Source: Lysobacterales bacterium (lineage in GTDB: Bacteria; Pseudomonadota; Gammaproteobacteria; Xanthomonadales; Marinicellaceae). From it: a stretch of 64,000 nucleotides of DNA. The position numbers were made by a program, and so were the translations under genes. The notes beneath the pieces were generated by a model, which worked only from the letters and a program-made list of their open reading frames with translations, did not search any database and was not told where the DNA came from. Where the stretch lies: contig JAGRJR010000007.1 in the NCBI GenBank assembly GCA_020442635.1, positions 434 through 64,433 on the forward strand. Reading direction: 5' to 3'. Positions 6,471 through 61,185 of the stretch are shown here, one piece after another. How positions within the stretch are numbered: position 1 is the stretch's first letter; the number at the start of each line of letters is the position of its first letter.

Positions 6471-6538
6471 CCGCGCATTCTACCAAAAAAAACCCCCAGC
6501 AATGCGGAGGTTTTCTTTAAAACTTTTTTAAAGATTTA

Positions 6539-7291
6539 TCAAAACAGCTCTTTAGGTAAGGATTGTTGTTTATAGCCGACAGGAACGATGAATGTGTCTG
6601 CTGGTAAGTCGTCATTATTGATGGTGTTCAACACACCTTTTTGTGACTCCATATCAAAATAGACTGGGATAACCTGGCCAATGGCTTCAAAATTCATACT
6701 TTGATCCTGACCAAATTGTGAAGCCAGCTTTTCTGCTACTTTCATAAAACCAGCAACAGCGCCATATTCGGTATCAGATATACCCAATTTGCTGTAACTG
6801 GTTACACAAAACTCACCATCTTTGGCATTTTGAGATTCTTTGATGACAACTTCACAACCAAAATCATTATAGCTTTTGGTTTCACCACTTTTGATGTATT
6901 TAGGAGCCGGTGCTTGTTTGGGCATTTTTTGTTTAATCATTGATTCCATCATGCCGCGCATTTGTTCACGTTGTGATTCAGGCAATTGCGCTAATTGTTC
7001 ATTAATCATTTTATCCATCATTTTTGAAACATCACTTAGTGCTTCTATCTCTCTTTGTCCAAACTCCAAAAAAGATTTTTCAGCATGGTTGATGACTGTA
7101 AAGACCGTTTTGTTGGCATCAAAAATAACCGCAGTTTCTGCTTCGGAGCTGCTGATCATTTTAACTTTGCCATCCGTTAGCAGCATTTTGCTTTGTTCAT
7201 TACCATTGCTGTCGTGGTATATCAAGGTGGTGTCTGCCGGAGCAATACCAGCGCCTAAGCATCCAGCTATCAGTAAAGCTTTGAATTTCAT
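6539..7291 (-). CDS. hypothetical lipoprotein
   Basis: 250-aa ORF with signal peptide and lipobox (LIAGC). No recognisable catalytic motif. Confidence 0.55.
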   Translation of the reverse strand: MKFKALLIAGCLGAGIAPADTTLIYHDSNGNEQSKMLLTDGKVKMISSSEAETAVIFDANKTVFTVINHAEKSFLEFGQREIEALSDVSKMMDKMINEQLAQLPESQREQMRGMMESMIKQKMPKQAPAPKYIKSGETKSYNDFGCEVVIKESQNAKDGEFCVTSYSKLGISDTEYGAVAGFMKVAEKLASQFGQDQSMNFEAIGQVIPVYFDMESQKGVLNTINNDDLPADTFIVPVGYKQQSLPKELF

Positions 7292-7414
7292 ATGTTGTTC
7301 TCGGTTTTAAAAAAGGCTTATTGTACGAATTAAAATTTAATCTCATGTTAACATGGCCAAACTTTTTTTGTGAACTTCGTCAGAATAATTGTGAATCGCC
7401 AAAGTAATGCCAAA

Positions 7415-9454
7415 ATGCCACAAAAAACCTACGTTCGATGGTTGTATCGAGGTTTTTTGTATTTATTTGGCGTTGTTGTAGGTTTAACAATACCTTGGTA
7501 CATATACATCAGCCATGTTACGGATTCTATTGTTAATGAACAATGGGAAATTCCATCAGTGGTTTATGCCAGACCTTTGGAATTGTATGTTGGTAAAAAC
7601 CTGACGCCAGAAGCTTTGGTTTTTGAATTAGACTTATTAGGCTATCAGGCTGTCAATGGGACACCGAAATTGGGACAGTATCAAATTTATCAGAACAACT
7701 TTGATATCTATAGCAAGGGTTTTGCTTTCACCGATAAAAACAGCCCGCCAAAAAGGATTAAAATAAACCTTTCGGAAAGTAAAATCGTTGAAATGACACC
7801 GGCCATTTATCGACTTGAACCCAAAGTTATTGGTCACTTTTATTCATCAGGACTGGAAAATCGGCAGCCAGTTAAAGTCAATGATATTCCAGACACCATG
7901 GTCAAGGGTTTACAAGCGGTTGAAGATCAGGATTTTAATCATCACCATGGTGTTTCATGGACAGGTATCATTCGAGCAGCCTATAAAAACTTGATGGCTG
8001 GTGAGATTGTGCAGGGAGGCAGCACCATCACCCAACAGTTGGTCAAAAATAAACTGCAATACAATCACAGCAGTATTTTACGCAAACTACACGAAGCACT
8101 GGCAGCGACTTTGTTAGAAAACAAGCTTAATAAAAAAGAAATCATCGAAATGTATTTCAATGAAATCTATTGGGGACAAGATGGAAAAGTATCGATACAT
8201 GGCGTTGCCGAAGCCGCCAGTTATTATTTTGCCAAAGATGTCAGACAGCTTAATATAGCTGAACAGGCACTGCTGGTTGGTATCATCAAGGGCCCTTCTT
8301 GGTATAACCCGTTCAGACAAGCTGAACGCGCCATACAGCGCCGCAATCTGGTGCTTAAAATATGGTTTGAAACAGCCATCATCAGTCAACAACAGTGGCA
8401 ACAAAGTAAAAATCAACCATTGGGTTTGAGTGGACATCGCAACATCAAAGCCGATTTTGCCGATTATATGGATGTGGTCAAAAGTCAGTTGAAAGCACAA
8501 TTCAAGGCCTCCGATCTGAGGCAAAAAGGCCTTAAAATTTTTACTTATTTAGATCCCTACATTCAATACAAAACCACCCAAACAGCTCGAAAAACCAGCC
8601 AATGGCTGTCATCAGATGTGGAAAGCGCGATTGTTGTCAGCGGTGCACAAAATGCAGAATTAAAAGCCATCAGCGGTTCAAAAAACGAACGTTCTCACTA
8701 CAATCGCGCACTGTTGGCAAAACGGCAAATCGGTTCTCTGATCAAGCCGTTTGTCTATTTGGCAGGATTGGAAACTTTGTCGGATTTTGATCTACAGGCT
8801 GATTTACATGATGAGCCCATCAAGTTGAAGACTGATGAAGGTACGGTATGGCAACCCAAAAATTGGGATAATAAAAGTTGGGGCATAATTGCTGCCAAGG
8901 AAGCCTTGGTTCATTCCCGAAATCAGGCGACGGTTGATTTGGGTTTGAAAATTAGCTTGAAAAAGTTCATTGGTTTTATGCAAGACCTGGGTTTAAATGT
9001 TAATCGCAGTCGTCACCCGTCACTGTTCCTTGGAGCCATTGACTTAACCCCGTTTGAAGTTCAACATCTGTTTAGTGTGTTTTCATCCAGGGGACAGAAT
9101 GCGCAGGTTCTTGCCGTCAACTACATCACGAATGTAGATAATGAATTGCTCAGTCACAACAAGCACCAAAATAAACTGCAAATCAACATCTCAAATATTG
9201 ACCTGATTAATCAAGCAATGTATGCCATAACCATCCGTGGCACGGCAAAAGCCATCAGCGAAAAATTTCAGCTTCCCGGCACTTGGTTTGGTAAAACCGG
9301 CACCACCAATGCAGGAAGAGACAGCTGGTTTTCAGGGTTTAATCAGGAACTGTTAGCTACCGTTTGGGTGGGTAGTGATGACAATGGTTCCACGCCTTAT
9401 TCCGGCAGCAGTGGTGCGCTGATATTGTGGGCTCATTTGTTTATGAATTTATAG
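7415..9454 (+). CDS. mrcB: bifunctional penicillin-binding protein 1B-like (transglycosylase/transpeptidase)
   Basis: N-terminal TM. GT51 motifs EDQDFNHHHGV and GGSTITQQLVKN. Transpeptidase SxxK (SLIK), SxN (SRN) and KTGTT. ATG 7415 is preferred over the track's GTG 7370. Confidence 0.8.
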   Translation: MPQKTYVRWLYRGFLYLFGVVVGLTIPWYIYISHVTDSIVNEQWEIPSVVYARPLELYVGKNLTPEALVFELDLLGYQAVNGTPKLGQYQIYQNNFDIYSKGFAFTDKNSPPKRIKINLSESKIVEMTPAIYRLEPKVIGHFYSSGLENRQPVKVNDIPDTMVKGLQAVEDQDFNHHHGVSWTGIIRAAYKNLMAGEIVQGGSTITQQLVKNKLQYNHSSILRKLHEALAATLLENKLNKKEIIEMYFNEIYWGQDGKVSIHGVAEAASYYFAKDVRQLNIAEQALLVGIIKGPSWYNPFRQAERAIQRRNLVLKIWFETAIISQQQWQQSKNQPLGLSGHRNIKADFADYMDVVKSQLKAQFKASDLRQKGLKIFTYLDPYIQYKTTQTARKTSQWLSSDVESAIVVSGAQNAELKAISGSKNERSHYNRALLAKRQIGSLIKPFVYLAGLETLSDFDLQADLHDEPIKLKTDEGTVWQPKNWDNKSWGIIAAKEALVHSRNQATVDLGLKISLKKFIGFMQDLGLNVNRSRHPSLFLGAIDLTPFEVQHLFSVFSSRGQNAQVLAVNYITNVDNELLSHNKHQNKLQINISNIDLINQAMYAITIRGTAKAISEKFQLPGTWFGKTGTTNAGRDSWFSGFNQELLATVWVGSDDNGSTPYSGSSGALILWAHLFMNL

Positions 9455-9511
9455 CTAAACAAATGAGCTCAGGGTTGTTCTGACATCACTATCAAGCTAA
9501 GATGAGCCGCT

Positions 9512-10003
9512 ATGAAAAACAGACTAACATTTTGGTTATTGGCTATGGTAACTGTGTTATTTGCCAGCAGTTGTAGTCAACACAGACCAATAGACATTAA
9601 TGACGACATTCGTGACCCTTCCGAACATGAACAATCGGTGATTCAAATCGCTCCAATGGTGCCCGAAGCTGTACAAATTTTGCTTCAAGAAGCAGAAAGT
9701 CAACAACAGCATGACCAAATTGAACAAGCCCTTTTAACCTTGAAAAGGGCTTTAAGTATCAGCCCAGGTTCAGCCTTGGTGCAACAACACTTGGCAGAGC
9801 TGTATCTGGCCGAAGGTGATTATCAGCAGGCCTTTGGCTGGTCAAACAGGGTATTTCAACAAGGCCCAACGCATGGTTCTGTATGCGAACGTGCCCGCAG
9901 AACGCTGGCCTTGGCTGCAGAGATGCTCAATGACGTAGAGACTCAAGCGCAAGCACTTGAATCAATCAGTGACTGTACTTTGCCAGCACCGAAAAAATAC
10001 TGA
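9512..10003 (+). CDS. TPR-like lipoprotein
   Basis: Signal peptide with lipobox (FASSC). TPR-like helices (LAELYLAEGDYQQAFGW). Confidence 0.55.
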   Translation: MKNRLTFWLLAMVTVLFASSCSQHRPIDINDDIRDPSEHEQSVIQIAPMVPEAVQILLQEAESQQQHDQIEQALLTLKRALSISPGSALVQQHLAELYLAEGDYQQAFGWSNRVFQQGPTHGSVCERARRTLALAAEMLNDVETQAQALESISDCTLPAPKKY

Positions 10004-11913
10004 TGATGAATATCACAGAGGTGCTGGGTGAGGATGGCCTTTTTCAGCAACAGCTGTCAGGCTTTAAAACCCGCCCACAACAAATTAAGCTGGCTGAAAA
10101 AATAGCCGAGGTGATTGAAGAGCAGTCTGTATTGATTGCTGAAGCTGGAACCGGAACCGGTAAAACCTTTGCTTATTTGTTGCCGGCACTGCTTTCAGAC
10201 AAAAAAATCATTGTGTCTACTGGTACCAAAACCCTACAAGACCAATTATTCACCAAAGACATTCCAAAATTACTGGAAATGTTGCAGATCAAACCCAAGG
10301 TCAGGTTACTCAAAGGCCGCAATAACTATTTGTGTTTACACCGCTATCATCAAGCCTCGGTGATGCCAATCAGCCGTTTTCCTGAAAACAAATCATTATT
10401 TAAACACCTGAATAACTGGATTCATCATTCAATTCGAGGAGAGGTTTCTGAGTTTATCAATCAAGTAGAAAATCGTCAGGTATTAACCAATTTAACTTCA
10501 ACACCAGAAAATTGTTTGGGTGCTGAATGTGACAATTACAACGAATGTTTTGTTTACAAGGCACGTCGCAGAGCGCTTGATGCTGATTTGTTGGTCATCA
10601 ATCATCATTTATTGTTTGCCGATATGGCGATAAAACAAGGAGGTTTTGGTGAATTGTTGCCCAAAGCAGATGTCATAGTGCTGGATGAGTCGCATCAAAT
10701 ACCCGAAATCGCTGGTCGTTTTTTCAGTCAGTTGTTCAGTTCACGTCAATGTAATGAGCTGCTGAGTGATTTGCTGACCGAAGCTGGTGAAGTAGAAGCT
10801 GCATTTGCAACCATCGCTGAAGCACATGAACAATTGAAACGCGCTTTGCGTGATGTCACTCTTGCCATGAGCCAAATGCCGGAACGCGAAAGCAGTAAAC
10901 GATTGTTCCAAACACCGATTATTATCGAGACTTTTGATTTATTATTGCATCAAATGAAGTTGTTACACTCGGCGCTCGAGCCGTTGGTGGTTCAAAGTTC
11001 GGGACTGCAAAATCTATACCTACGATTAGATGGCATGGTGATGTTGCTGGAAGACATGATGCAGCAAGGTGAGGGCAATTATATTTACTGGTTTGAGGCC
11101 AGGGAAAAATATTTTGCGCTGCATAAATCGCCACTGGAAGTGGCCGACCCGTTGTCTAATTTTCGGGCACCGTTAGAAACCAGCTGGGTGCTGACTTCAG
11201 CTACCTTGACAGTTGATGGTTCATTTAGCCACTTTCAGCAGCAAACTGGTTTTGAACCAGCCGACACTTTGTTGCTTGACAGTCCATTTGATTATCAACA
11301 ACAGGCGTTGCTGTTATTACCCAAAGAATTGCCAGAGCCCAGTGATTACGAATTCAATAAAGCCATGTTTGAATACGTGACACCTATCATTGAAGCAGCC
11401 AAGGGCGGCGTGTTTTTTTTGTTCACATCGCATCGCTCATTGCAAATGGCTGCCCACCATTTTCGCAATCAACTAGATCGACCTATTTTTGTTCAAGGTG
11501 AACAGGATCGCAATCAAATGCTTGAAGGGTTTCGTCAAGCAGGTAATGGTTTGTTATTGGGAGCCGCCAGTTTTTGGGAGGGTGTGGATGTAGCAGGTGC
11601 CAGTCTGAGTTGCGTTATTATCGACAAATTACCTTTTGCTCATCCCGGGGAGCCTGTATTGAAAGCGAAAATAGAATACATCAACAAAAACGGCGGTAAA
11701 GCTTTTTTTGACTTCCAGGTTCCGAAGGCAATTATCAGTCTCAAACAAGGCGCAGGAAGATTAATTCGAGGTGAAAATGATCAAGGCTTGTTGGTGATAT
11801 GTGACCGACGCATCACCAGTAAGTCTTACGGTCAAACATTTCTTAACTCTTTACCTGATATGAAAACCACTCACGATCGTGACCAGGCAATTAATTTTTT
11901 ATCGTGCATCTGA
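10003..11913 (+). CDS. yoaA: ATP-dependent DNA helicase, DinG/YoaA (XPD-like Fe-S) family
   Basis: Walker A AEAGTGTGKTFAYLLPA and DEAH-like VLDESHQ. Cys cluster CLHRY...CLGAECDNYNEC. 636 aa, the length I recall for E. coli YoaA. Confidence 0.8.
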   Translation: MMNITEVLGEDGLFQQQLSGFKTRPQQIKLAEKIAEVIEEQSVLIAEAGTGTGKTFAYLLPALLSDKKIIVSTGTKTLQDQLFTKDIPKLLEMLQIKPKVRLLKGRNNYLCLHRYHQASVMPISRFPENKSLFKHLNNWIHHSIRGEVSEFINQVENRQVLTNLTSTPENCLGAECDNYNECFVYKARRRALDADLLVINHHLLFADMAIKQGGFGELLPKADVIVLDESHQIPEIAGRFFSQLFSSRQCNELLSDLLTEAGEVEAAFATIAEAHEQLKRALRDVTLAMSQMPERESSKRLFQTPIIIETFDLLLHQMKLLHSALEPLVVQSSGLQNLYLRLDGMVMLLEDMMQQGEGNYIYWFEAREKYFALHKSPLEVADPLSNFRAPLETSWVLTSATLTVDGSFSHFQQQTGFEPADTLLLDSPFDYQQQALLLLPKELPEPSDYEFNKAMFEYVTPIIEAAKGGVFFLFTSHRSLQMAAHHFRNQLDRPIFVQGEQDRNQMLEGFRQAGNGLLLGAASFWEGVDVAGASLSCVIIDKLPFAHPGEPVLKAKIEYINKNGGKAFFDFQVPKAIISLKQGAGRLIRGENDQGLLVICDRRITSKSYGQTFLNSLPDMKTTHDRDQAINFLSCI

Positions 11914-32284: not shown

Positions 32285-32355
32285 GGTTTGCTTCGAGGCC
32301 ACTTCTTGCGCTGGAGCGAAAACCGTAACCTCTTCGCAAGCTTAAATGAGTTACT
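32285..32355. repeat. 71-bp direct repeat, copy 1
   Basis: Identical to 32396-32466 (GGTTTGCTTCGAGGCCACTTCTTGCGCTGGAGCGAAAACCGTAACCTCTTCGCAAGCTTAAATGAGTTACT). Confidence 0.95.
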
Positions 32356-32395: not shown

Positions 32396-32466
32396 GGTTT
32401 GCTTCGAGGCCACTTCTTGCGCTGGAGCGAAAACCGTAACCTCTTCGCAAGCTTAAATGAGTTACT
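32396..32466. repeat. 71-bp direct repeat, copy 2
   Basis: Identical to copy 1, separated from it by a 40-bp spacer. Confidence 0.95.
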
Positions 32467-53309: not shown

Positions 53310-54023
53310 ATGCTCTCAGCACTCACACCACTTGTTATTGGCTTTTTCTCCGGTTTTCACTGCATTGCCATGTGTGGCGGTCTTTGTGCGGTGATTTGCC
53401 AAAAGCAAAATAACAATCAAACCCTCATTACAAACCTTGGACGCATCACCACTTACACACTGCTCGGTGCACTGTTTGCCGGCATCATTCAAGGCGCCAG
53501 TTTACAATTGGATTTGGGCAATTGGGGCTTTTTCCTGCGCTTGTTGATGGGAGTGATGTTGGTCATCAGCGGTTTGGTGATTCTATTCAAAAACAAAGCC
53601 AAATGGTTGACCATTCAAAAAGCTTTGCCGTTTTGGCCTGCCGTGTCACAAAAACTCAAAAACATCCAACAAGCCACCAGCACACCTGCCGTGTTTGCCA
53701 AAGGCATGCTGTGGGGATTGATTCCCTGTGGTTTGTTGTATGGCATGCTGGTCATTGCCGCAACCACCGCTGATGTCTGGCGTGGTGCCAGCTTTATGCT
53801 GTTCTTTGGTTTGGGAACTTTAATTCCTTTATTGGTTTCACAAAACATCATCCGCAAACTGCTTGATCAAAACAACCGCTGGCTACGAGGTCTATCAGGT
53901 GGTTTCGTGATTTTTCTGGGCTTATGGATTACGCTGTCACCCTGGTTTGCCCATGGCCTGATTCCCGAAGACAACCGCTTTTTTACTGAACTGAGCGCTG
54001 TGTTGTCGATGTGTATACCGTAA
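53310..54023 (+). CDS. DsbD_2/TauE-like membrane protein
   Basis: GFHCIAMCGGLC motif and ~6 TM helices. This is the usual position downstream of ccoS. Confidence 0.65.
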   Translation: MLSALTPLVIGFFSGFHCIAMCGGLCAVICQKQNNNQTLITNLGRITTYTLLGALFAGIIQGASLQLDLGNWGFFLRLLMGVMLVISGLVILFKNKAKWLTIQKALPFWPAVSQKLKNIQQATSTPAVFAKGMLWGLIPCGLLYGMLVIAATTADVWRGASFMLFFGLGTLIPLLVSQNIIRKLLDQNNRWLRGLSGGFVIFLGLWITLSPWFAHGLIPEDNRFFTELSAVLSMCIP

Positions 54024-54248
54024 ATGCTTCCTACGGACTAAAACCTGTCCTAACATCTCCGTAGTTACACAATTTACTCTTGAAATATAAATTTTTTCTT
54101 AACAATCCCTAATTACTTTTTTTACACAATTAATTTAATAGGAAGCTCCTGTTTGCAAAAAATAATGAAACATATGTTGTTTATATTTGAATAAATAAAA
54201 ATATCTACATAAAATGATTTTTTCTTTTAACATATAGGTAGATTGTAA

Positions 54249-54947
54249 ATGAAACATATTTTTTTATTAATATTAATTCATATGTCTTTTAATATCTGCG
54301 CAAAAGAAGAATTAAATACCGAACTTAACGGTGAAATATTTAGAGGCGTGATGCAAGATACATTAGCTCAATTCAATTATCACAGAAGTCAAACGGAATT
54401 TTTATTTCCAGACTACCAAAGAGAGGAGTCATTTTTTAAATCTTTTGGTGAAATAAGTTATCAAGGAGTCATTTCAACGCAAGAGCTTGGTAAATTGGAA
54501 TATGTAACTAAAAATGCCATTATTTATTGGAATACAAGATCAGTTGATTCCAAAAGTGCTGGAAGTTTAGACATGAATCAGTTTATTTTCGAACATCATC
54601 CAAACTTGTTTCCGAATGGTGAACAAAAATTTGTTTGTGGAGGATTATGTATTGGAGCAATTGGTGTTGGTATTGGTGCTATTGCATGTGCAATATGGAA
54701 TGAACAATGTAATACAAGGTGTAGTATGGTATCCTGCCCTGTCGGATCCTCTAAAGTATGTGAATCTTCTTGTGCCACAATGTACTGCGGTGTAGCCTGT
54801 AATCATTTTGATCCAGAATTGCTTCCAATCTTCAATCCACCATGGGCTGGTGGTGTGTGGAATACTTATCCATTTGCCGATTGGAATGAATTTACTTTAA
54901 ATGGAGACCCTTCAGGCGGTAGTGGTCCTGTTACAATAGGAAAGTAA
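54249..54947 (+). CDS. secreted Cys-rich protein with Gly-zipper hydrophobic segment
   Basis: Signal peptide MKHIFLLILIHMSFNICA, GGLCIGAIGVGIGAIACAIW, then NEQCNTRCSMVSCPVGSSKVCESSCATMYCGVACNHF. Very AT-rich gene. Confidence 0.6.
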   Translation: MKHIFLLILIHMSFNICAKEELNTELNGEIFRGVMQDTLAQFNYHRSQTEFLFPDYQREESFFKSFGEISYQGVISTQELGKLEYVTKNAIIYWNTRSVDSKSAGSLDMNQFIFEHHPNLFPNGEQKFVCGGLCIGAIGVGIGAIACAIWNEQCNTRCSMVSCPVGSSKVCESSCATMYCGVACNHFDPELLPIFNPPWAGGVWNTYPFADWNEFTLNGDPSGGSGPVTIGK

Positions 54948-54973
54948 GTTCATTAAAACTTTAATTAATACTT

Positions 54974-55016
54974 AAAACCCCAAAATTAGATTTGATTTTT
55001 TTGGGGTTTTTTGGTT
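54974..55016 (+). terminator. intrinsic terminator
   Basis: AAAACCCCAAAA-13 nt loop-TTTTGGGGTTTT followed by TTGGTTTTG. Confidence 0.7.
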
Positions 55017-55024
55017 TTGTAGTG

Positions 55025-55987
55025 ATGTATATGGATAAAAAACGCCCTGTTTTCTTTGGTTTCATAATTTCTGGTATATTAGCCTTTATTTTGATTGCTC
55101 CAGTTATATTGACAACCTTACAAAACCTATCGGGTAATATAATATTTGAAACCAGTGATATTCACTTTTTGGTTACTGAAGAATCAGAAGATGAAGTTCT
55201 CGCCACCATTCATCAATCTATCAGTAATTTAAGGATTGAGGAATTGGTCAACTTAGAAGTTACGAATGTTGAAAATGACAAAATTTTATCTGTTTATTTT
55301 AAAATAAAATCGAATAAGGGTGTCCAAATCAGTGAATTTATAGAAACACTCAAATCGAACAAATCATTACTTTTTAAAAGCGAAAACTGGAAGTCTTTCA
55401 TGACTGATGATTTTGTAAAGAGTGACTCACTTATATTTTCCCAGCTGGCCTCATTGTTGTTTTTTTCAATCATTTATCTCAAATATTTTCAACACAAGTC
55501 ATTTACTGTTCGTAATTCTCGATACAACCTGGAAAACTTGACAAAAGCTACAGTAGCAATTTGTGGTCTGGTTTTACTGGTTCAAATAATATATCTAATA
55601 TTTGAAAAATTGGGTGTTAATTTTTATGAATATGATGGTGCTTTTAGAAAGACAACGGATAACACTTGGATACTTTATCTCACAACAATTGTATTGATGC
55701 CGGCTTTGGAGGAACTGGTGTTTAGGGGGTTGATATTTAAAAACTTCTTGTTGAATAATATGTTTATAAAGGGCTTCTTGTTCACTTCGGTGTTGTTTGC
55801 GTCACTACACCAATGGCAAATATGGCACTTAAGTTCAGAAGTGAAAATTTCTCAATTTATCATCATGTTTCTAATTTCTATGGTCTTTTGTTGGTTGTAC
55901 AAAAAATCAGGGCAGTTGTGGGTAGTGATTTATGCACATGCGCTCTACAATGGCACACATATTCTGCTTATTCATTTATTCGGGTAA
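55025..55987 (+). CDS. CPBP (CAAX/Abi) family intramembrane metalloprotease
   Basis: Motif 1 EELVFRG, motif 2 FASLH, motif 3 HALYN. Extra ~160-aa N-terminal region after TM1. ATG 55025 is preferred because TTG 54992 lies inside the terminator. Confidence 0.75.
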   Translation: MYMDKKRPVFFGFIISGILAFILIAPVILTTLQNLSGNIIFETSDIHFLVTEESEDEVLATIHQSISNLRIEELVNLEVTNVENDKILSVYFKIKSNKGVQISEFIETLKSNKSLLFKSENWKSFMTDDFVKSDSLIFSQLASLLFFSIIYLKYFQHKSFTVRNSRYNLENLTKATVAICGLVLLVQIIYLIFEKLGVNFYEYDGAFRKTTDNTWILYLTTIVLMPALEELVFRGLIFKNFLLNNMFIKGFLFTSVLFASLHQWQIWHLSSEVKISQFIIMFLISMVFCWLYKKSGQLWVVIYAHALYNGTHILLIHLFG

Positions 55988-56204
55988 AAAGCATAAAAAC
56001 TGATAGAAAAACTCCTCTTACGAATATGTATCAGTTAAGAATCTATCAAACCATCTTTTCTTTCTTATTAAAACAGCCAAAATATCTGAACTTTTTATTT
56101 TCCCCGTTGTTTAACTTTGAAGCGTTAAATCTAACTGATGGCACATTTTTTTGTGTCAATTTTTATCATAATCTATAAGCAAGTTTTTTTGGGGACAGGA
56201 TTCC

Positions 56205-56870
56205 ATGTTGGAATTAACCGACATTAGCAAGATTTATCAAACACAAGGCGAGACCATCACAGCATTGGATCATGTGGACTTATCCATTGCCACCGGAGAG
56301 TTTGTCGCTATCATGGGCCGCTCGGGTTCGGGTAAATCCACCATGCTAAATATTTTGGGCTGTATGGATAAGCCCACTTCGGGTCAATATCTGTTGGCCA
56401 ATAAGGACGTCAGTGCACTGAATGATGATGCCTTGAGCCAAATTCGCAATGATCATATTGGTTTTGTGTTTCAGGGTTTTCACTTATTACCTCGTTTAAG
56501 TGCATTGGAAAATGTGATGGTGCCATTGCGTTTTGCCTCTGCTGAAAAACAGCAAGGCGGCGAACAAAGGGCCAAGGACTTGTTAGACCAGGTTGGCCTG
56601 GGAGAACGCTTGCATCACATGCCCAATGAAATGTCCGGTGGTCAAATTCAAAGAGTGGCCATTGCTCGCTCGTTGATCAATCAGCCTGCTGTGTTACTGG
56701 CTGATGAACCCACTGGTAATCTTGACAGTGCGATATCACAACAAATCATTGATTTGTTATGTTCCTTAAATCAGGCAGGACAAACCATTGTGATGGTCAC
56801 TCATGAGCCTGATATAGCGGAAAATGCTGGGCGTACCATTCACTTTCTTGACGGAAAAATCATCTCATGA
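56205..56870 (+). CDS. ABC transporter ATP-binding protein (MacB/LolD type)
   Basis: Walker A GRSGSGKST, signature MSGGQIQRVAIARSL, Walker B LLADEPTGNLD. Confidence 0.9.
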   Translation: MLELTDISKIYQTQGETITALDHVDLSIATGEFVAIMGRSGSGKSTMLNILGCMDKPTSGQYLLANKDVSALNDDALSQIRNDHIGFVFQGFHLLPRLSALENVMVPLRFASAEKQQGGEQRAKDLLDQVGLGERLHHMPNEMSGGQIQRVAIARSLINQPAVLLADEPTGNLDSAISQQIIDLLCSLNQAGQTIVMVTHEPDIAENAGRTIHFLDGKIIS

Positions 56871-57799
56871 CAAAAGCCATATTTTTGATATTTTTTGCAT
56901 CTTTTGCCCATGCCCAACTGTTTACCGGTGTGGTTGAATCGAGTCAGACTCAGGTGGTTAATATGCCGCAGTTGCGTGGTTGGCAAGGTAAAATAAGTGA
57001 AATGGTGGATGAAGGTACTTTTGTTGAAATTGGAGATTTTTTGGTACGAATTGATGGCAGTGAAGTAGATGGCACCATCGAGTCCAAAGTTGAACAGTTG
57101 GATGTGTTCGAGGCCAGTGCCAAACGCGATATGATTCAAATTGACATCGATTTGAACAATGCTCAACTGGCTTATGAAAAAGCCAAAGTAGATCGCAAAG
57201 TAGCCCAACTAAAAGCCGATGTGCCGGTTAATTTTATTGGTGAACTGGAGTATAAAGAGCGACAATTGGCTTTAAAAACCAGGACCAAAGACCTCAATGA
57301 AGCTGAAAATAACCTCAAATCGAGCCAACAGAAGAAAAAAGAGAAACAACTTGAAGTTGAATTGGGCTTGGAGCAAAAACAAAAAGATCTGGCCTATTGG
57401 CAAGGCCAGTTAGATTCGTTGACCATTAAGGCCAAACAGTCTGGCTATGTCATTTATGCAGCACATCCCTGGACTGGTAGCAAATATCAAGTCGGAGATC
57501 AGGCCAACAGTGGTATGGAAATTTTGAAAGTTTCTAAAAAGCAAAACATGCGGGTTAAAGCTTGGGTGAATGCTATTGATATTCCTGTCATTAGCCAGGG
57601 GAAGGCTGTAAAAGTGTCTTTTGATGCCTTGCCTAACGTAAAAGTAAACGGTGAAATATCCACCATTTCTTCAGGTGGGCGTGACAAAAAAGACTGGGGA
57701 GATGGTTTGTATTATGAAATCGAGGTTACTTTGCCAGATACAGATGACATAGCATTGCTTCCTGGAATGAGTGCCCTGATTCATATTGGCGAGGAGTGA
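56867..57799 (+). CDS. HlyD-family periplasmic adaptor 1
   Basis: Signal/anchor, lipoyl-like half-motifs, a long coiled coil, and a beta-barrel end (LPGMSALIHIG). ATGA overlap with the ATPase gene. Confidence 0.7.
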   Translation: MTKAIFLIFFASFAHAQLFTGVVESSQTQVVNMPQLRGWQGKISEMVDEGTFVEIGDFLVRIDGSEVDGTIESKVEQLDVFEASAKRDMIQIDIDLNNAQLAYEKAKVDRKVAQLKADVPVNFIGELEYKERQLALKTRTKDLNEAENNLKSSQQKKKEKQLEVELGLEQKQKDLAYWQGQLDSLTIKAKQSGYVIYAAHPWTGSKYQVGDQANSGMEILKVSKKQNMRVKAWVNAIDIPVISQGKAVKVSFDALPNVKVNGEISTISSGGRDKKDWGDGLYYEIEVTLPDTDDIALLPGMSALIHIGEE

Positions 57800-57800
57800 G

Positions 57801-58742
57801 ATGAAAAAAATAGTGTTGTTAATTTTAGTGCTAAACCTGTTCCCTGCTGCTGCTGACTTTAAAGCCAATGGTGAATTAAAAGCTTTGGAAACAGACAATT
57901 ATTCACCACCCAAAATTCGCCGAATCTGGCAATATACCATAGCCTTCATGGCGCCTGATGGTAGTCAGGTTAATCCTGGACAACCAGTACTGATGTTCAA
58001 AACCGATCAGTTGAACGAGCGTCTGCTGGATAAACAAGGGGAGTTGAATATCAAACAATCCGAGTTGAAAAAAACCGAAGTTGGTAAGGTGGAAACCATC
58101 CAAAACAAAGACCTTGCTATTGAAGAGAAGAAAATGCTGTTGGACAAAGCGCAACGCAAAGCTGAATTACCCAAAAGTGTGATTGCCTTGAACGAATATG
58201 AAGAAAATCAACTCAAATATCAATTGGCTCGGCTGGAATACCAACATGCCATTGATGATAGACGTTTAACCGAAGAAAAGCTGGATACTGAAATCGATAT
58301 TTTAAATGCAAATATCGCTAAATTTTCGGCCGAAGTTGATGAATTGAATAACTCGATTCAAAGCATGCGCATCATGTCCAAACGCAAAGGTATTGTGATG
58401 CATCAGACCGATTGGAATAATAACAAATATGCAGTAGGGGATTCGGTTTGGGGTGGGGCACGGGTCACTGAAGTCGCTGATTTGGAGCAAATCATCGCTC
58501 AATTAGAAATCAAGGAAAACGACATGTCTCGAGTCAGCGAAGGGCAAAAAGTTAAATTCACGCTGGATGCATATCCCGATATGGAATTCAGCGGTAATAT
58601 CAAATCTTTGTCAAAAGTGGTGCGAACCAAATCGAAAAACCAACCTTCAAAAATTCTTGATGCGATTGTGGCTATTGATGAATTGAACCTTGAAATTATG
58701 CGACCTGGCATGAGCATTAAAGCAACCATTCTGGCGGAATAA
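57801..58742 (+). CDS. HlyD-family periplasmic adaptor 2 (paralogue of adaptor 1)
   Basis: Same architecture, with a C-terminal RPGMSIKATI. ATG lies 1 nt after the upstream stop. Confidence 0.7.
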   Translation: MKKIVLLILVLNLFPAAADFKANGELKALETDNYSPPKIRRIWQYTIAFMAPDGSQVNPGQPVLMFKTDQLNERLLDKQGELNIKQSELKKTEVGKVETIQNKDLAIEEKKMLLDKAQRKAELPKSVIALNEYEENQLKYQLARLEYQHAIDDRRLTEEKLDTEIDILNANIAKFSAEVDELNNSIQSMRIMSKRKGIVMHQTDWNNNKYAVGDSVWGGARVTEVADLEQIIAQLEIKENDMSRVSEGQKVKFTLDAYPDMEFSGNIKSLSKVVRTKSKNQPSKILDAIVAIDELNLEIMRPGMSIKATILAE

Positions 58743-58744
58743 AC

Positions 58745-59950
58745 ATGAAAAAAACAACCCTGATTTTAGCTACCAGCCTGTTAACAGCCTGTGGTGGAGA
58801 GGATAAAAACTCCACTCCAGTAATCACTGTTATGCAAGATCGAGTGGTGTTTGAAATTCATGCAGAAGGGGAGCTGGAGGCGGTTAAATCAACCCCAATC
58901 ACTACGCCTGCAGCATCACGTCGTCCACAGACACTGGCATGGATAGCGCCGCAATTTTCTACAGTCAAAGAAGGTGAAGTGGTGGCGAAATTCGATGGCA
59001 GTGATTTTCAACTGGAAGTGGATGAAACGGAGTTTGAAATCCAGAAAATCATGTATTCAATGATGGACAAGGATCGTGAAATAGATAACAGTAAATTTAG
59101 TTTTGGCGCTGAAGCCGAAGTTATCGACTATGAATATGAACTGGCCAAACAATTCAACATTGATGACCCATTGCTGTATACCAAGATTGAAATGATTGAA
59201 GCTGGTGATAATGAGGATTTTCTCAAAGCCAAAGCCGAACACATCGACAAGGTTGAAGAAAATTTTGAAGAAAAGTCGGCTTCAGAAAAAGCCGTACTGG
59301 AAAGCTCAAAACAAAAACAAATGGCTAAATTGGAAATGAACTCAGCCAGTTTAAGCGCATTAGAAATTAAAGCGCCGCATGATGGTTTGTTTGTACTTGA
59401 GCCCAGTTGGGACGGTTCTTTACCTGAACCTGGGAAGTCAGTGTTTCCGGGTGCGAAACTTGCTTCGTTGCCTGACTTGAGTGCTATGCAGGCCAAGATT
59501 TATGTCCCTGAAGTTGAAGCCATCGGCATCAAGGAAGGGGTGGCGGCAACCGTTTCTTTACATGCTTTTCCTGATAACCAAATCAACGGTACTGTCAGTT
59601 CAATCAGCAAAACTGCCCAGCCCAAAGAGCGAGACAATCCTGTTAAATATTTTACCGTAACCGTTGCTTTGGACACCTCCAATGATGATAAGCTCAAACC
59701 TGGACAACGATTAGATGCCAGCATTCGGGTGGTCGAACAAGAACAAGGGCTTGCTGTGCCTATTCAGACGGTTTTTCGTGAACAGGAACGCACCTGGGTT
59801 TTTATTCAAAAGGGTGGTGGGTTTGCACAACAAGATGTTACAACCGGCTTTTGTAGTTCCAGTTTGTGTACCATTGAAACAGGTTTAACCGATGGAGATG
59901 TTATCGCATTAAGTCAACCCGTAGGATTGATAGCGGAGGGTAGGCCATGA
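58745..59950 (+). CDS. HlyD/RND-adaptor-family lipoprotein (adaptor 3)
   Basis: Lipobox LLTAC, coiled coil, and a beta-barrel/MPD-like C-terminus (LKPGQRLDASIRV). Confidence 0.7.
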   Translation: MKKTTLILATSLLTACGGEDKNSTPVITVMQDRVVFEIHAEGELEAVKSTPITTPAASRRPQTLAWIAPQFSTVKEGEVVAKFDGSDFQLEVDETEFEIQKIMYSMMDKDREIDNSKFSFGAEAEVIDYEYELAKQFNIDDPLLYTKIEMIEAGDNEDFLKAKAEHIDKVEENFEEKSASEKAVLESSKQKQMAKLEMNSASLSALEIKAPHDGLFVLEPSWDGSLPEPGKSVFPGAKLASLPDLSAMQAKIYVPEVEAIGIKEGVAATVSLHAFPDNQINGTVSSISKTAQPKERDNPVKYFTVTVALDTSNDDKLKPGQRLDASIRVVEQEQGLAVPIQTVFREQERTWVFIQKGGGFAQQDVTTGFCSSSLCTIETGLTDGDVIALSQPVGLIAEGRP

Positions 59951-61185
59951 ATACACTGAGCATCAATTTAAAACATGCCATCTCTGAAATGATGCACCAC
60001 AAACTGCGTACTTTGCTTACGCTGTTGGGTATGGTGTTTGGGGTGGGTGCGGTGATAGCTATGCTGAGCATCGGTGAAGGGGCGCAAGCAGAAGCCACCC
60101 GTTTGATTGAAAAAATGGGTCTGCGTAATCTGGTGATTGAGGAAAAAACCTTTGACCAGGAAACCCTGAAAGAAATTCGCGAAGACACTTTGGGTTTGTC
60201 GATGAATGATGTAAGAGCCTTGCAGGACAGTTTGCCATTTGTTGAACAAACCTGTGGTGAAAAAACCATCAAGACTTGGAGTTTGTTTTCAGTCAATGCC
60301 AATTCTGATGGTGCCGTTAAAGCGATATCGCCCAGTTGTTTTGCCATGGCCAATCTTGAAGCGGCTACAGGAAGGTTGTTCGAGCAAGCTGATAACAAAG
60401 CGTTTTCACAAGTGGCCGTTATCGGTTCTGAGGTGGCTGATCAGCTATTTCCCGAAGGTAATGCTCTCGGCCAACGCATTAAAATCAACCATCTGTGGGT
60501 TGAAGTGGTGGGTGTTTTACGTAAAGACGAACTTTCCAAAGACGAAATTCAAGGCATCAAACTGGGTGCCGAACACAACCAGATTTTCATTCCAGTAGAA
60601 ACTGCTTTCAAACGCCTGAAGCTGGAAATGTTAGAGAGCCAATTGGACACCATAAGAGTTGGTCTTGATGAAAGCATCAAGCCGCAAATGGCCTCAGTAG
60701 CCATTGACCGTTTGCTCAAACGTCGCCATGGTAACATCGACGATTACCAAATTATTGTGCCGGCTTCATTACTAAATCAACAAAATCAAACCCAACAAAT
60801 CTTCACCATAGTGATGTCAAGCATAGCGGGCATTTCCCTGTTGGTCGGTGGTATAGGTATCATGAATATCATGTTGGCTACGGTGTTAGAACGCACCAAA
60901 GAAATTGGCTTATTACGCGCTTTAGGTGCACGCAAAGCTGACATCAAAAATCAATTCCTTATCGAAAGCGCCACCATTGCTGCTGTTGGTGCAGTGCTCG
61001 GTATTGTCATGGGGATCATCTTATCGTTCCTGATTCAGTCGCTGGCCGACTGGCCAGTAGCCTGGAGTATTTTTTCCATTATCCTTGCAGTTGGTGTTTG
61101 CCTGTTGACAGGCATCGCTTTTGGCTATTATCCCGCTAAGCAAGCCGCCGAACTGGATCCGATACAGGCGCTACAGAAAAATTGA
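59947..61185 (+). CDS. ABC transporter permease, MacB/FtsX type
   Basis: TM1, a ~230-aa periplasmic domain, and three C-terminal TMs with an FtsX-like ending (GIAFGYYPAKQAAELDPIQAL). Confidence 0.85.
   Translation: MNTLSINLKHAISEMMHHKLRTLLTLLGMVFGVGAVIAMLSIGEGAQAEATRLIEKMGLRNLVIEEKTFDQETLKEIREDTLGLSMNDVRALQDSLPFVEQTCGEKTIKTWSLFSVNANSDGAVKAISPSCFAMANLEAATGRLFEQADNKAFSQVAVIGSEVADQLFPEGNALGQRIKINHLWVEVVGVLRKDELSKDEIQGIKLGAEHNQIFIPVETAFKRLKLEMLESQLDTIRVGLDESIKPQMASVAIDRLLKRRHGNIDDYQIIVPASLLNQQNQTQQIFTIVMSSIAGISLLVGGIGIMNIMLATVLERTKEIGLLRALGARKADIKNQFLIESATIAAVGAVLGIVMGIILSFLIQSLADWPVAWSIFSIILAVGVCLLTGIAFGYYPAKQAAELDPIQALQKN

Follow-up and report, generated by a model that had tools for sequence, protein, structure and literature searches.

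A low-GC islet of about 2.1 kb, compositionally foreign to its surroundings, lies in the 64,000-nucleotide (nt) stretch of contig JAGRJR010000007.1 from a Lysobacterales bacterium (hereafter, the window). It carries two genes in tandem: an open reading frame (ORF1) for a Cys-rich protein with a predicted Sec signal peptide, and a gene for a glutamic intramembrane protease of the CPBP/Rce1-like superfamily. Judged from the sequences compared here, the pair is a self-contained, horizontally mobile two-gene cassette that is very rare, and the protease probably acts directly on ORF1 or on the ORF1 product. In the leading model, which is given somewhat less than an even chance, ORF1 would be a bacteriocin-like or pro-toxin effector and the CPBP protein the protease that provides enzymatic immunity, maturation or both. 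The two genes are real: they are maintained in about 12 sequence clusters, and metatranscriptome contigs, a weak form of evidence, cover parts of both.

The association of the two genes was examined in other genomes. The ORF1 family comprises about 12 sequence clusters; four homologues were recovered from 5.8 billion protein clusters and nine by a HMMER profile search over 1.84 billion representatives, none of the homologues found being named, and their lengths range from 187 to 256 amino acids (aa). In the nine lineages whose contigs are informative (the window and the loci L001, L002/L006, L003, L008/9, L012/13, L014, L016 and L017), ORF1 is followed every time on the same strand, after a gap of 33-210 nt, by a gene for an Rce1-like CPBP protein of 300-326 aa; L004, L010, L011 and L015 were uninformative for pairing, as their contigs end too early. 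The pairing persists while ORF1 identity among the paired lineages falls to about 25-30%. The initial annotation, made from the letters of the window, had proposed conserved pairing as the check on a two-gene module, and the pairing was found in nine of nine informative lineages and in five long contexts that are unrelated to one another. In the window the pair is placed between cco genes with a DsbD_2 gene on the left and an ABC operon on the right; in L001, between an island with an Imm51 gene and a SelR gene; in L012/13, between IspDF with an XRE regulator and an M23 peptidase gene; in L014, between hypothetical genes on both flanks, with an AAA_15/AAA_21 ATPase gene at a distance of about 3.3 kb; and in L017, between an ABC operon with an XRE regulator on the left and an XRE regulator with RuvB on the right. 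A low-GC patch surrounds the pair wherever composition was measured, namely in the window, L001 (host about 0.54), L017 (host about 0.36) and L012. Scans of genome, viral and metagenome contigs with ORF1 patterns returned nothing, a weak negative since homologue-bearing JGI contigs were also missed.

Both proteins diverge rapidly. Between L017 and the window, ORF1 is 28% and the CPBP protein 23% identical, while the neighbouring ABC orthologues retain 48-72% identity. Moreover, identity of the CPBP proteins is below that of the ORF1 proteins that accompany them (50 vs 72%, 39 vs 62%). The protease thus diverges faster than its partner, whereas a housekeeping sorting enzyme that serves variable clients should show the opposite. 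When ORF1 and CPBP identities were correlated in the manner of a mirror tree, the Pearson coefficient was 0.85 and the Spearman coefficient 0.09; the result was not retained as independent evidence, the Pearson value being driven by close clusters.

Two of the contexts deserve separate description. In L001, positions 6000-11900 form a low-GC island (0.37-0.48 in a genome of 0.52-0.60) that contains the pair at its edge, the Imm51 gene (E 1e-21) and small hypothetical ORFs that are acidic or contain Cys; this island looks like an immunity-gene or conflict island. A divergent XRE-family helix-turn-helix gene of 83-85 aa lies just 5' of ORF1 on the minus strand of L012 (7625-7876), L013 (6317-6568) and L017 (7628-7885). 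These XRE genes accompany the P0011/P0012 subfamily of ORF1, are 56-59% identical by tblastx and are absent from the window, L001 and L014; they probably regulate the cassette in that subfamily only.

The islet was delimited against L007, the closest genome match, a metagenome-assembled genome (MAG) labelled 'Gammaproteobacteria bacterium', in which blastn homology to the window ends at 54019 and restarts at 56120. In L007, L018 and L019 the cco genes and the DsbD_2 gene are followed, after a spacer of 150-480 nt (about 150 nt in L018 and L019), by an orthologous ABC operon of five genes; ORF1 and the CPBP gene are both absent. The DsbD_2 protein of the window is 89% identical to that of L007, and nucleotide identity with L018 and L019 is about 70-74%. 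Since these three relatives keep the synteny without the pair, the islet is a lineage-specific insertion, with its empty site documented in all three. The initial annotation had described positions 54024-56204 as visibly more AT-rich than both flanks, limits that agree well with the mapped indel, and measurement confirmed the composition. GC content in 500-nt windows is 0.28-0.37 over 53750-56250 vs 0.41-0.47 on either flank, and the value of 0.319 at 54020-56119 is the minimum over every 2.1-kb window of the 64 kb (mean 0.406, standard deviation 0.023, z -3.8). At third codon positions, ORF1 (0.228) is at the bottom of the 42 long ORFs (mean 0.396, standard deviation 0.048), and the CPBP gene has 0.35. 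Neither an integrase nor a transposase was found among the ORFs of the islet, and its ends carry no transposon-type flanking or terminal direct or inverted repeats beyond chance-level AT-rich matches. No Rfam family was detected within it, a search that did not include a separate tRNA gene scan. The empty-site spacer of L007 (2371-2747) contains repeated GC-rich palindromic units, for instance GCCGAAGGCAA(A)GAAGCCT twice, that resemble repetitive extragenic palindromes; that sequence is absent from the window.

Near-identical DNA is present in wastewater and activated-sludge metagenomes. In a 2024 wastewater DNA run the depth of the islet equals that of its flanks (8.5 vs 8.6), and therefore fixation of the islet in that population is suggested. 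In a 2018 activated-sludge metagenome (run X4), positions 54340-55260 and 55812-55995 are covered at 2.3-3.6x vs 6-8x in the flanks, with broken contigs, a drop that could reflect AT-bias or population heterogeneity for the islet.

ORF1 carries both strings that had been quoted initially, GGLCIGAIGVGIGAIACAIW and CNTRCSMVSCPVGSSKVCESSCATMYCGVAC, and the description of a 232-aa protein with a Sec-type signal and a dense Cys array is supported by the reading frame, the shape of the predicted signal and the eight conserved Cys. The N-terminus has the form expected for signal peptidase I (MKH, a hydrophobic core and ICA/K), and the homologues show AXA-like equivalents (SA/K, FA/Q, LA/K). Assignment as a lipoprotein was rejected: Cys17 of 'NIC' is not part of a lipobox and is absent in the homologues. 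Downstream of the signal, the N-domain has no relatives in the PDB or Pfam. AlphaFold2 (AF2) models of ORF1, built with 5 and then 12 sequences, reached pLDDT values of 53 and 59, and only the coarse layout of secondary structure was used. The start region of ORF1 (AATGAAACATAT...; 54248-54265) is duplicated 84 nt upstream at 54164-54181, with 89% identity over 18 nt. The duplicate makes a 9-codon mini-ORF (MKHMLFIFE and a stop) in the AT-rich leader, which may encode a leader peptide or be what is left of a duplication.

The central segment of ORF1 (aa 128-150) is only marginally hydrophobic. In the window its Kyte-Doolittle value is 2.16 and its summed Hessa free energy (dG) is +0.3 kcal/mol, near the transmembrane (TM) threshold; across the family dG ranges, as a simple sum, from +0.1 to +5.2 kcal/mol, so that the segment makes no robust stop-transfer anchor; in most partner CPBP proteins the best TM helices, TM1 and TM3, have -0.5 to -2.2. 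Arg or Lys occurs inside the segment in three distant members, one of which (P0016) has two Arg. The segment had been called a glycine zipper, which holds in part: the window protein contains two GxxxG and its close subfamily one or two, but the six most distant members have none, the strict GxxxGxxxG was found in no family member, and the Pfam glycine-zipper families (Gly-zipper_Omp, _OmpA, _YMGG, Rick_17kDa_Anti) gave no match at E<=1 with any of the 12 members.

The Cys cluster that follows is the best conserved feature. Among the 12 aligned ORF1 sequences, seven of the eight conserved Cys are shared by all and the eighth, C171, by ten, while the spacing varies (C158-x(2-4)-C163, C163-x(6-7)-C171, C175-x(4-9)-C180). 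Ten of the 12 members have eight or ten Cys after the signal, and the additional ones come and go pairwise, for example as CGGLC or CPWC ahead of the segment. In 11 of the 12 members the part that begins with Cys147 and runs to the C-terminus is net acidic, and it contains no cluster of basic residues. The sub-threshold dG values, the paired gain and loss of Cys and the acidic region devoid of a basic cluster together argue that the C-terminal half of ORF1 would be exported and disulfide-bonded, and not cytoplasmic behind a TM anchor. In the tachyplesin-type β-hairpin peptides two disulfides are formed by Cys spaced C-x3-C-x4-C-x3-C. The same spacing occurs in ORF1, where AF2 draws a β-hairpin with low confidence; by analogy this may be taken as a lead. 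Searched as single sequences and with all 12 members, ORF1 has no match in Pfam, NCBIfam, PADLOC, PHROGs or PDB sequence profiles, and Foldseek of the model against the PDB returned nothing at E<0.3. The family thus appears undescribed in every library searched, as had been anticipated.

The partner is a clear member of its superfamily. It matches the Pfam Rce1-like family PF02517 with 65.8 bits (cut-off 22.4, E 4.3e-18, profile positions 3-92 of 93), and all NCBIfam models remain below their cut-offs: ABC_perm_CPBP (NF041647) 53.8 vs 435, then MrtJ (NF033192) with 37.4 bits vs 75, MroQ (NF046050) 21.9 vs 270, the myxosortase core Mrt_core (NF040914) 21.5 vs 100 and exosortase E/protease (TIGR04162) 20.8 vs 150. 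A TTG at 54992 was discarded as the start of the gene (frame 54992-55987), since it falls within the intergenic stem-loop. In the alignment of eight partner CPBP proteins P226, E229, E230, F233, R234, F258, H262, H305 and N309 are invariant; the catalytic motif residues being so conserved, the partners are predicted to be active enzymes and not degenerate scaffolds, in agreement with the intact EExxxR, FxxxH and HxxxN motifs reported initially. Outside the canonical motifs, S285, C289 and Y292 (nt ~55877-55900) are also invariant in all eight partners and place a membrane-embedded Cys in the pattern S-x3-C-W/Y-x-Y; this conservation may relate to the Cys-rich partner.

The protein begins with a basic N-terminus and TM1, followed by a loop domain of about 105 aa, TM2, a K/R-rich loop and the CPBP core; the part behind the loop domain is described as a six-TM core. 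An N-terminal extension of about 160 residues had been noted. The additional part is there, but it amounts to about 135 aa, composed of TM1 and the loop, after which TM2 and TM3 still precede motif 1. By the positive-inside rule the loop domain would be periplasmic. A β-α-β-β-α-β pattern was read in it by eye from the sequence, it is kept only among partners of close ORF1 homologues, and no PDB sequence relatives of it were detected. Homology of this domain with the N-domain of ORF1 was considered and dismissed (hhalign probability 0.1%).

The spacer between the genes contains a perfect 12-bp inverted repeat followed by a U-rich run, a candidate attenuator or partial terminator. A stem-loop is located at the equivalent position in seven of eight independent loci, with unrelated sequences. 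Relative to dinucleotide shuffles the z values are -2.0 in the window, -6.3 in L001, -3.0 in L002, -1.4 in L003, -3.1 in L008, -4.7 in L012, -5.6 in L014 and -1.1 in L016; L003 still has a 10-bp stem, and L016 is the exception, with a 33-nt spacer without a strong stem. The arrangement fits a structural product that would be made in excess and an accessory enzyme that would be obtained by read-through. The promoter proposed 5' of ORF1 has weak support, as sigma-70 consensus sites are no more numerous in the region than in shuffles. Metatranscriptome contigs of a wastewater study cover part of ORF1 (54446-54827) and the 5' end of the CPBP gene (55029-55280) at depth 2.5-3.9, and also the ABC genes at low depth. 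This suggests in-situ transcription of both genes, at the level of contigs and with DNA carry-over possible.

Features of the islet and its immediate flanks (positions in the window)
Feature	Position	Strand	Remarks
Low-GC inserted islet, ~2.1 kb	54020..56119	.	from the DsbD_2 stop to the conserved leader of the ABC operon
Candidate sigma-70 promoter, TTGAAT-17-TAAAAT	54187..54215	+	9/12 consensus; 34 nt 5' of the ORF1 ATG; weak evidence
ORF1, 232 aa, first member of a family without a library model	54249..54947	+	signal peptide, N-domain, hydrophobic segment, 8-Cys cluster, acidic aromatic tail
Predicted Sec signal peptide, aa 1-18	54249..54302	+	cleavage ICA/KEE, read from sequence
N-domain, aa 19-127 (~105 aa)	54303..54629	+	invariant Y85 and W94 (12-sequence alignment); AF2: helices and 4-stranded sheet, pLDDT ~65-80
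Marginally hydrophobic, small-residue-rich segment, aa 128-150	54630..54698	+	two GxxxG; flanking Cys130/134 and Cys147
Cys cluster, aa 147-184	54687..54800	+	C147-x6-C154-x3-C158-x4-C163-x7-C171-x3-C175-x4-C180-x3-C184
Acidic, aromatic/Pro-rich C-terminal tail	54801..54944	+	FNPPW..GG.W..YPF..W (12-sequence alignment)
Intergenic stem-loop, candidate attenuator	54974..55010	+	AAAACCCCAAAA-N13-TTTTGGGGTTTT, then U-rich run; perfect 12-bp inverted repeat
CPBP/Rce1-like glutamic intramembrane protease, 320 aa	55025..55987	+	alternative start 55031 (318 aa, NCBI record)
CPBP loop domain, aa 31-136, predicted periplasmic	55115-55432	+	positive-inside: basic N-termini, K/R-rich loop after TM2
Motif 1, E229-E230-x-x-F233-R234 (EExxxR)	55709..55726	+	invariant in eight partners
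Motif 2, F258-x3-H262 (FxxxH)	55796..55810	+	invariant in eight partners
Motif 3, H305-x3-N309 (HxxxN)	55937..55951	+	invariant in eight partners
Left flank, outside islet: DsbD_2 family membrane protein	53310..54023	+	PF13386, E 7e-45; end of ccoG/ccoI/ccoS cluster; syntenic in L007, L018, L019
MacB-type ABC operon, outside islet	56205..61185	+	ATPase, three HlyD-family adaptors, MacB_PCD/FtsX permease

That the CPBP protein probably acts on ORF1 follows from the strict adjacency and co-divergence of the two, the intact catalytic motifs, the extra domain predicted in the periplasm, to which ORF1 is probably exported, and the conserved Cys/hydrophobic junction of ORF1. In the mechanism that is proposed, ORF1 would be made in excess, the stem-loop damping read-through into the CPBP gene; after Sec export it would acquire four or five disulfides by oxidation in the periplasm. 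Its small-residue-rich segment would be able to insert into membranes, which would make ORF1 a bacteriocin-like or pro-toxin effector. The extra domain of the CPBP protein would recognise ORF1, and the membrane-embedded site would cut it at or near the hydrophobic/Cys junction, which could protect the producer (Abi-type enzymatic immunity), mature an active fragment, or both. Provided that the predicted topology is right, TM4 has the EExxxR motif near its cytoplasmic end, as Rce1 does, and, speculatively, only ORF1 inserted across the membrane would reach the active site, an appealing logic for immunity. Optionally, and by analogy with known pumps, the adjacent triple-adaptor MacB-type transporter might expel the periplasmic product across the outer membrane or add protection, a step considered unlikely. 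Export and disulfide state of ORF1, its membrane activity, its cleavage by the CPBP protein, toxicity and immunity are all inferred properties in this scheme.

Sparse, fast-moving cassettes are typical of conflict systems. The toxin reading is favoured because the cassette is rare, mobile, low in GC and fast-evolving, as conflict elements are, because the CPBP protein evolves faster than ORF1, because ORF1 looks exported and disulfide-stabilised with an insertion-prone segment, and because the L001 copy shares an island with Imm51 and small acidic ORFs. Several observations weigh against it. Neither sequence nor structure resembles a known toxin, bacteriocin or immunity family in Pfam, NCBIfam, PADLOC, PHROG, the PDB or Foldseek searches, and the ORF1 family, of about 200-255 aa with a folded N-domain, is unlike the small GG-leader peptides beside known Abi immunity proteins. 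The cassette encodes no route across the outer membrane, which a Gram-negative producer would need, and its link to the ABC operon is not obligate, the operon standing alone at five or more loci, the pair having no such operon within 8 kb in three long contexts and the L017 slot being variable. The RNA evidence is confined to contigs and the AF2 models are of low confidence. The hydrophobic segment of the window protein is close enough to the TM threshold to be compatible with a type-I topology in which the Cys domain would be cytoplasmic and bind metal. Real toxin systems commonly have orphan immunity genes, and no orphan copies of this CPBP subtype were seen, in a tiny sampling. In favour of the toxin reading, there is precedent for self-immunity by CPBP genes located downstream of bacteriocin genes (Haft 2023, bioRxiv 10.1101/2023.06.07.544157; PMC5380434).

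The main rival, possible if unlikely, is that ORF1 is a non-toxic envelope or surface protein and the CPBP protein its dedicated sorting protease, the internal helix and the invariant Cys acting as the cleavage signal; cleavage would free or re-anchor the N-domain, or free the Cys-rich part. CPBP proteins beside a single client with an invariant Cys next to a TM helix are on record (Haft 2023, bioRxiv 10.1101/2023.06.07.544157), which gives this rival as good a precedent as immunity has, MrtJ is the second-best NCBIfam match, adjacency is strict with catalytic motifs intact, the invariant Cys147 closes the hydrophobic segment, and a hairpin that gives the client in excess over its enzyme would fit equally well. 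Yet the tripartite C-terminal signal of Cys motif, TM helix and Arg cluster is absent and the segment is internal; the 85 aa behind it are net acidic overall and include the Cys cluster, which is conserved more strongly than any other part of ORF1. Besides, the MrtJ, Mrt_core and exosortase E scores are far under their cut-offs, the enzyme evolves faster than the client, and a low-GC, patchy and mobile distribution is unusual for housekeeping sorting. Regulated intramembrane proteolysis or a stress-sensing module, in which a type-I ORF1 with a periplasmic sensor would have its cytoplasmic Cys8 domain (Zn, Fe-S or redox) released as a signal by the CPBP protein, is quite improbable. The central segment of the window subfamily is hydrophobic enough (Kyte-Doolittle 1.7-2.2), residues 135-160 are modelled by AF2 as one unbroken helix, the eight conserved Cys would suffice for two Cys4 sites, the predicted topology puts EExxxR, like that of Rce1, close to where TM4 meets the cytoplasm, and XRE regulators adjoin one subfamily; but the segment reaches +3 to +5 kcal/mol in several members and contains the two Arg of P0016, the net-acidic tail is without the K/R cluster that a cytoplasmic position would call for, Cx3C spacing with paired gain and loss of Cys points to disulfides and not to CxxC-type metal sites, and neither a partner sigma factor nor a DNA-binding domain occurs in the window, L001 or L014. 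An anti-phage module of abortive-infection type, or an addiction module, with a membrane-disrupting effector checked or activated by the protease, is very improbable. It would agree with mobile low-GC islets, a two-gene architecture, the ATPase gene near the L014 copy and the immunity gene in the L001 island. Nevertheless, PADLOC-DB v2 and PHROG gave no match for either protein with at least five family members (one PADLOC hit at E 0.07), viral contigs gave none in a weak pattern scan, a Sec-exported effector is atypical for abortive infection, and the name 'Abi' of the CPBP family is a historical misnomer (Haft 2023, bioRxiv 10.1101/2023.06.07.544157).

A further explanation involves the neighbouring operon, with ORF1 as the substrate and the CPBP protein as the maturation protease of a triple-adaptor MacB-type (type VII) exporter, to which the pair would be an accessory; it is regarded as doubtful. 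The operon matches PF00005, PF12704 with PF02687, and PF13437/PF16576 three times, with no C39 domain, and contains no gene for an outer-membrane factor. Its three tandem paralogous HlyD-family adaptors are mutually about 22-26% identical and the third has a lipobox. The five genes form a 1:1 orthologous unit at no fewer than eight loci (the window, L007 2855-7844, L017 2632-7617 and L018-L022). The pair adjoins orthologous operons in two divergent genomes, immediately upstream in the window and immediately downstream in L017, with pairs of different subfamilies, that of L017 being the one with the XRE regulator; between these operons the ATPase and permease are 72% and the adaptors 48-55% identical. 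Two adjacencies among five long contexts are unlikely under random insertion, and MacB-type pumps take Sec-exported, disulfide-bonded periplasmic peptides or guard against endogenous peptide toxins (PMC5985334, PMC4887032). On the other hand, the operon has host-like GC, it occurs without the pair at five loci (L007, L018, L019, L021 and L022), and no such operon lies within 8 kb of the pair in L001, L012/13 or L014. The slot of L017 7634-9757, between the ABC permease and the XRE/RuvB block, is occupied in L022 (13400-20200), a close relative of L017, by an unrelated 6.8-kb low-GC insert encoding a 1307-aa hybrid sensor (Reg_prop/Y_Y_Y-HisKA-HATPase-REC-AraC), and therefore this flank of L017 is a general variable region. 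Hence the ABC operon is not part of the cassette, because it occurs without the pair at five loci and is missing within 8 kb of the pair in three long contexts. The statement that the pair sits directly upstream of a multi-adaptor ABC exporter was correct as to adjacency, which recurs in L017, but the exporter is no part of the islet. The contrary notion, drawn from the empty site, that the operon is simply irrelevant was softened by the adjacency in L017 and then tempered by the variable slot in L022. A functional link between pair and operon, which the double adjacency suggests without compelling it, would make mechanistic sense but be facultative at best, and is itself unlikely.

Elsewhere in the window, a perfect 71-nt direct repeat (32285-32355 and 32396-32466, spacing 111 nt) was observed in the second-lowest-GC region (about 0.33), a 1.25-kb gap between polA and a small SEC-C-motif ORF/Ser-Thr kinase gene.

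The CPBP superfamily and the theme of a CPBP gene beside its partner, in bacteriocin immunity and in C-terminal sorting, are already known. Not described in the libraries and literature searched are the partner family, the CPBP subtype with a predicted periplasmic insert, the Sec-dependent Cys-cluster architecture and the Gram-negative setting. Bacterial CPBP/Rce1-like proteases are abundant, almost none has an assigned substrate, and the roles proposed for them, in bacteriocin immunity and protein sorting, rest largely on gene neighbourhood. The cassette offers a minimal system of two strictly co-inherited genes, with an obvious candidate substrate that has a conserved Cys/hydrophobic junction, and ORF1 adds an unmodelled family of Cys-rich exported proteins that occurs in Gammaproteobacteria of wastewater and activated sludge and in other Gram-negative MAGs of low GC. 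Should ORF1 prove membrane-active, it would provide a new antimicrobial scaffold; should its function be mundane, a client/protease pair would still be added to the CPBP landscape. It is rather improbable that the cassette represents a new class of Gram-negative protein antibiotic, that is, a pro-protein with four or five disulfides and a Gly/Ala-rich inserting segment, a co-evolving CPBP protein that confers immunity or release through its periplasmic domain, and a MacB-type exit pump. If it did, it would supply the first defined substrate and physiological role of a proteobacterial CPBP protein and the first enzymatic intramembrane immunity in a Gram-negative.

Among known systems, the Abi/CPBP bacteriocin self-immunity proteins of Gram-positives, such as PlnI, PlnLR, SkkI and BlpY, reportedly described by Kjos et al. 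in 2010 and summarised in Haft 2023, share with the pair a CPBP gene directly 3' of the gene for an exported, hydrophobic product that looks membrane-active, conserved motifs and a small, mobile and patchy cassette. They differ in that the Abi partners have less than 100 aa and a double-glycine leader, while ORF1 proteins, of 200-255 aa, have a Sec signal, a folded N-domain and eight clustered Cys; the hosts are here Gram-negative, the CPBP protein has an extra TM helix and a predicted periplasmic domain of about 105 aa, and the pair lacks a dedicated C39-ABC exporter. The JDVT-CTERM/MrtJ and MYXO-CTERM/myxosortase systems also have a single client beside a dedicated CPBP protein, an invariant Cys near a hydrophobic helix, and CPBP N-terminal domains that are radically different between systems. 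In contrast to their clients, ORF1 has an internal helix (aa 128-150 of 232), no Arg cluster and no tripartite C-terminal signal, and the NF033192 score is about half the MrtJ cut-off (37.4 vs 75).

In Bacillus subtilis, SdpC is a Sec-dependent precursor of about 200 aa that gives rise, after SdpAB maturation, to an internal hydrophobic disulfide peptide toxin. YknWXYZ, of MacB type, protects Bacillus from SDP, its own Sec-dependent disulfide peptide toxin (PMC5985334, PMC4887032). The likeness consists of a Sec precursor of about 200 aa, a hydrophobic disulfide product and a MacB-type pump with an adaptor that protects from the extracytoplasmic side; SDP differs in its one disulfide, SdpAB maturation, SdpI immunity, lack of a CPBP protein and Gram-positive host. 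The family searches returned no match for ORF1, no direct comparison with the SdpC sequence having been made. The enterotoxin STII is exported by Sec, oxidised by DsbA in the periplasm and expelled via MacAB-TolC (PMC5985334), a route that a fragment of ORF1 might also take, since the pair adjoins a MacB-type pump twice. STII, unlike ORF1, is a small peptide without a protease partner, and the pump link of the pair is adjacency in only two of five long contexts. The Cdz proteins of Caulobacter are glycine-zipper contact-dependent bacteriocins whose neighbouring CaaX protease is dispensable (PMC5380434). They resemble the cassette as small-residue hydrophobic, membrane-damaging effectors of a Gram-negative with polytopic inner-membrane immunity and with ABC/HlyD and CAAX protease genes nearby, and differ in that CdzC and CdzD, of about 85 aa, use type I export and have no Cys cluster, while CdzI is not a CPBP protein. 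Finally, Rce1, the eukaryotic and archaeal type II CAAX prenyl protease, differs from the present enzyme in its substrates, since ORF1 has no CAAX C-terminus, no prenylation machinery is involved and the substrate relation is here inferred. Both proteins belong to the same fold family and share the catalytic Glu/His/His/Asn set, and it is a plausible analogy that cleavage beside a Cys at the membrane interface, as practised by Rce1, would have its counterpart at the invariant Cys147 of ORF1.

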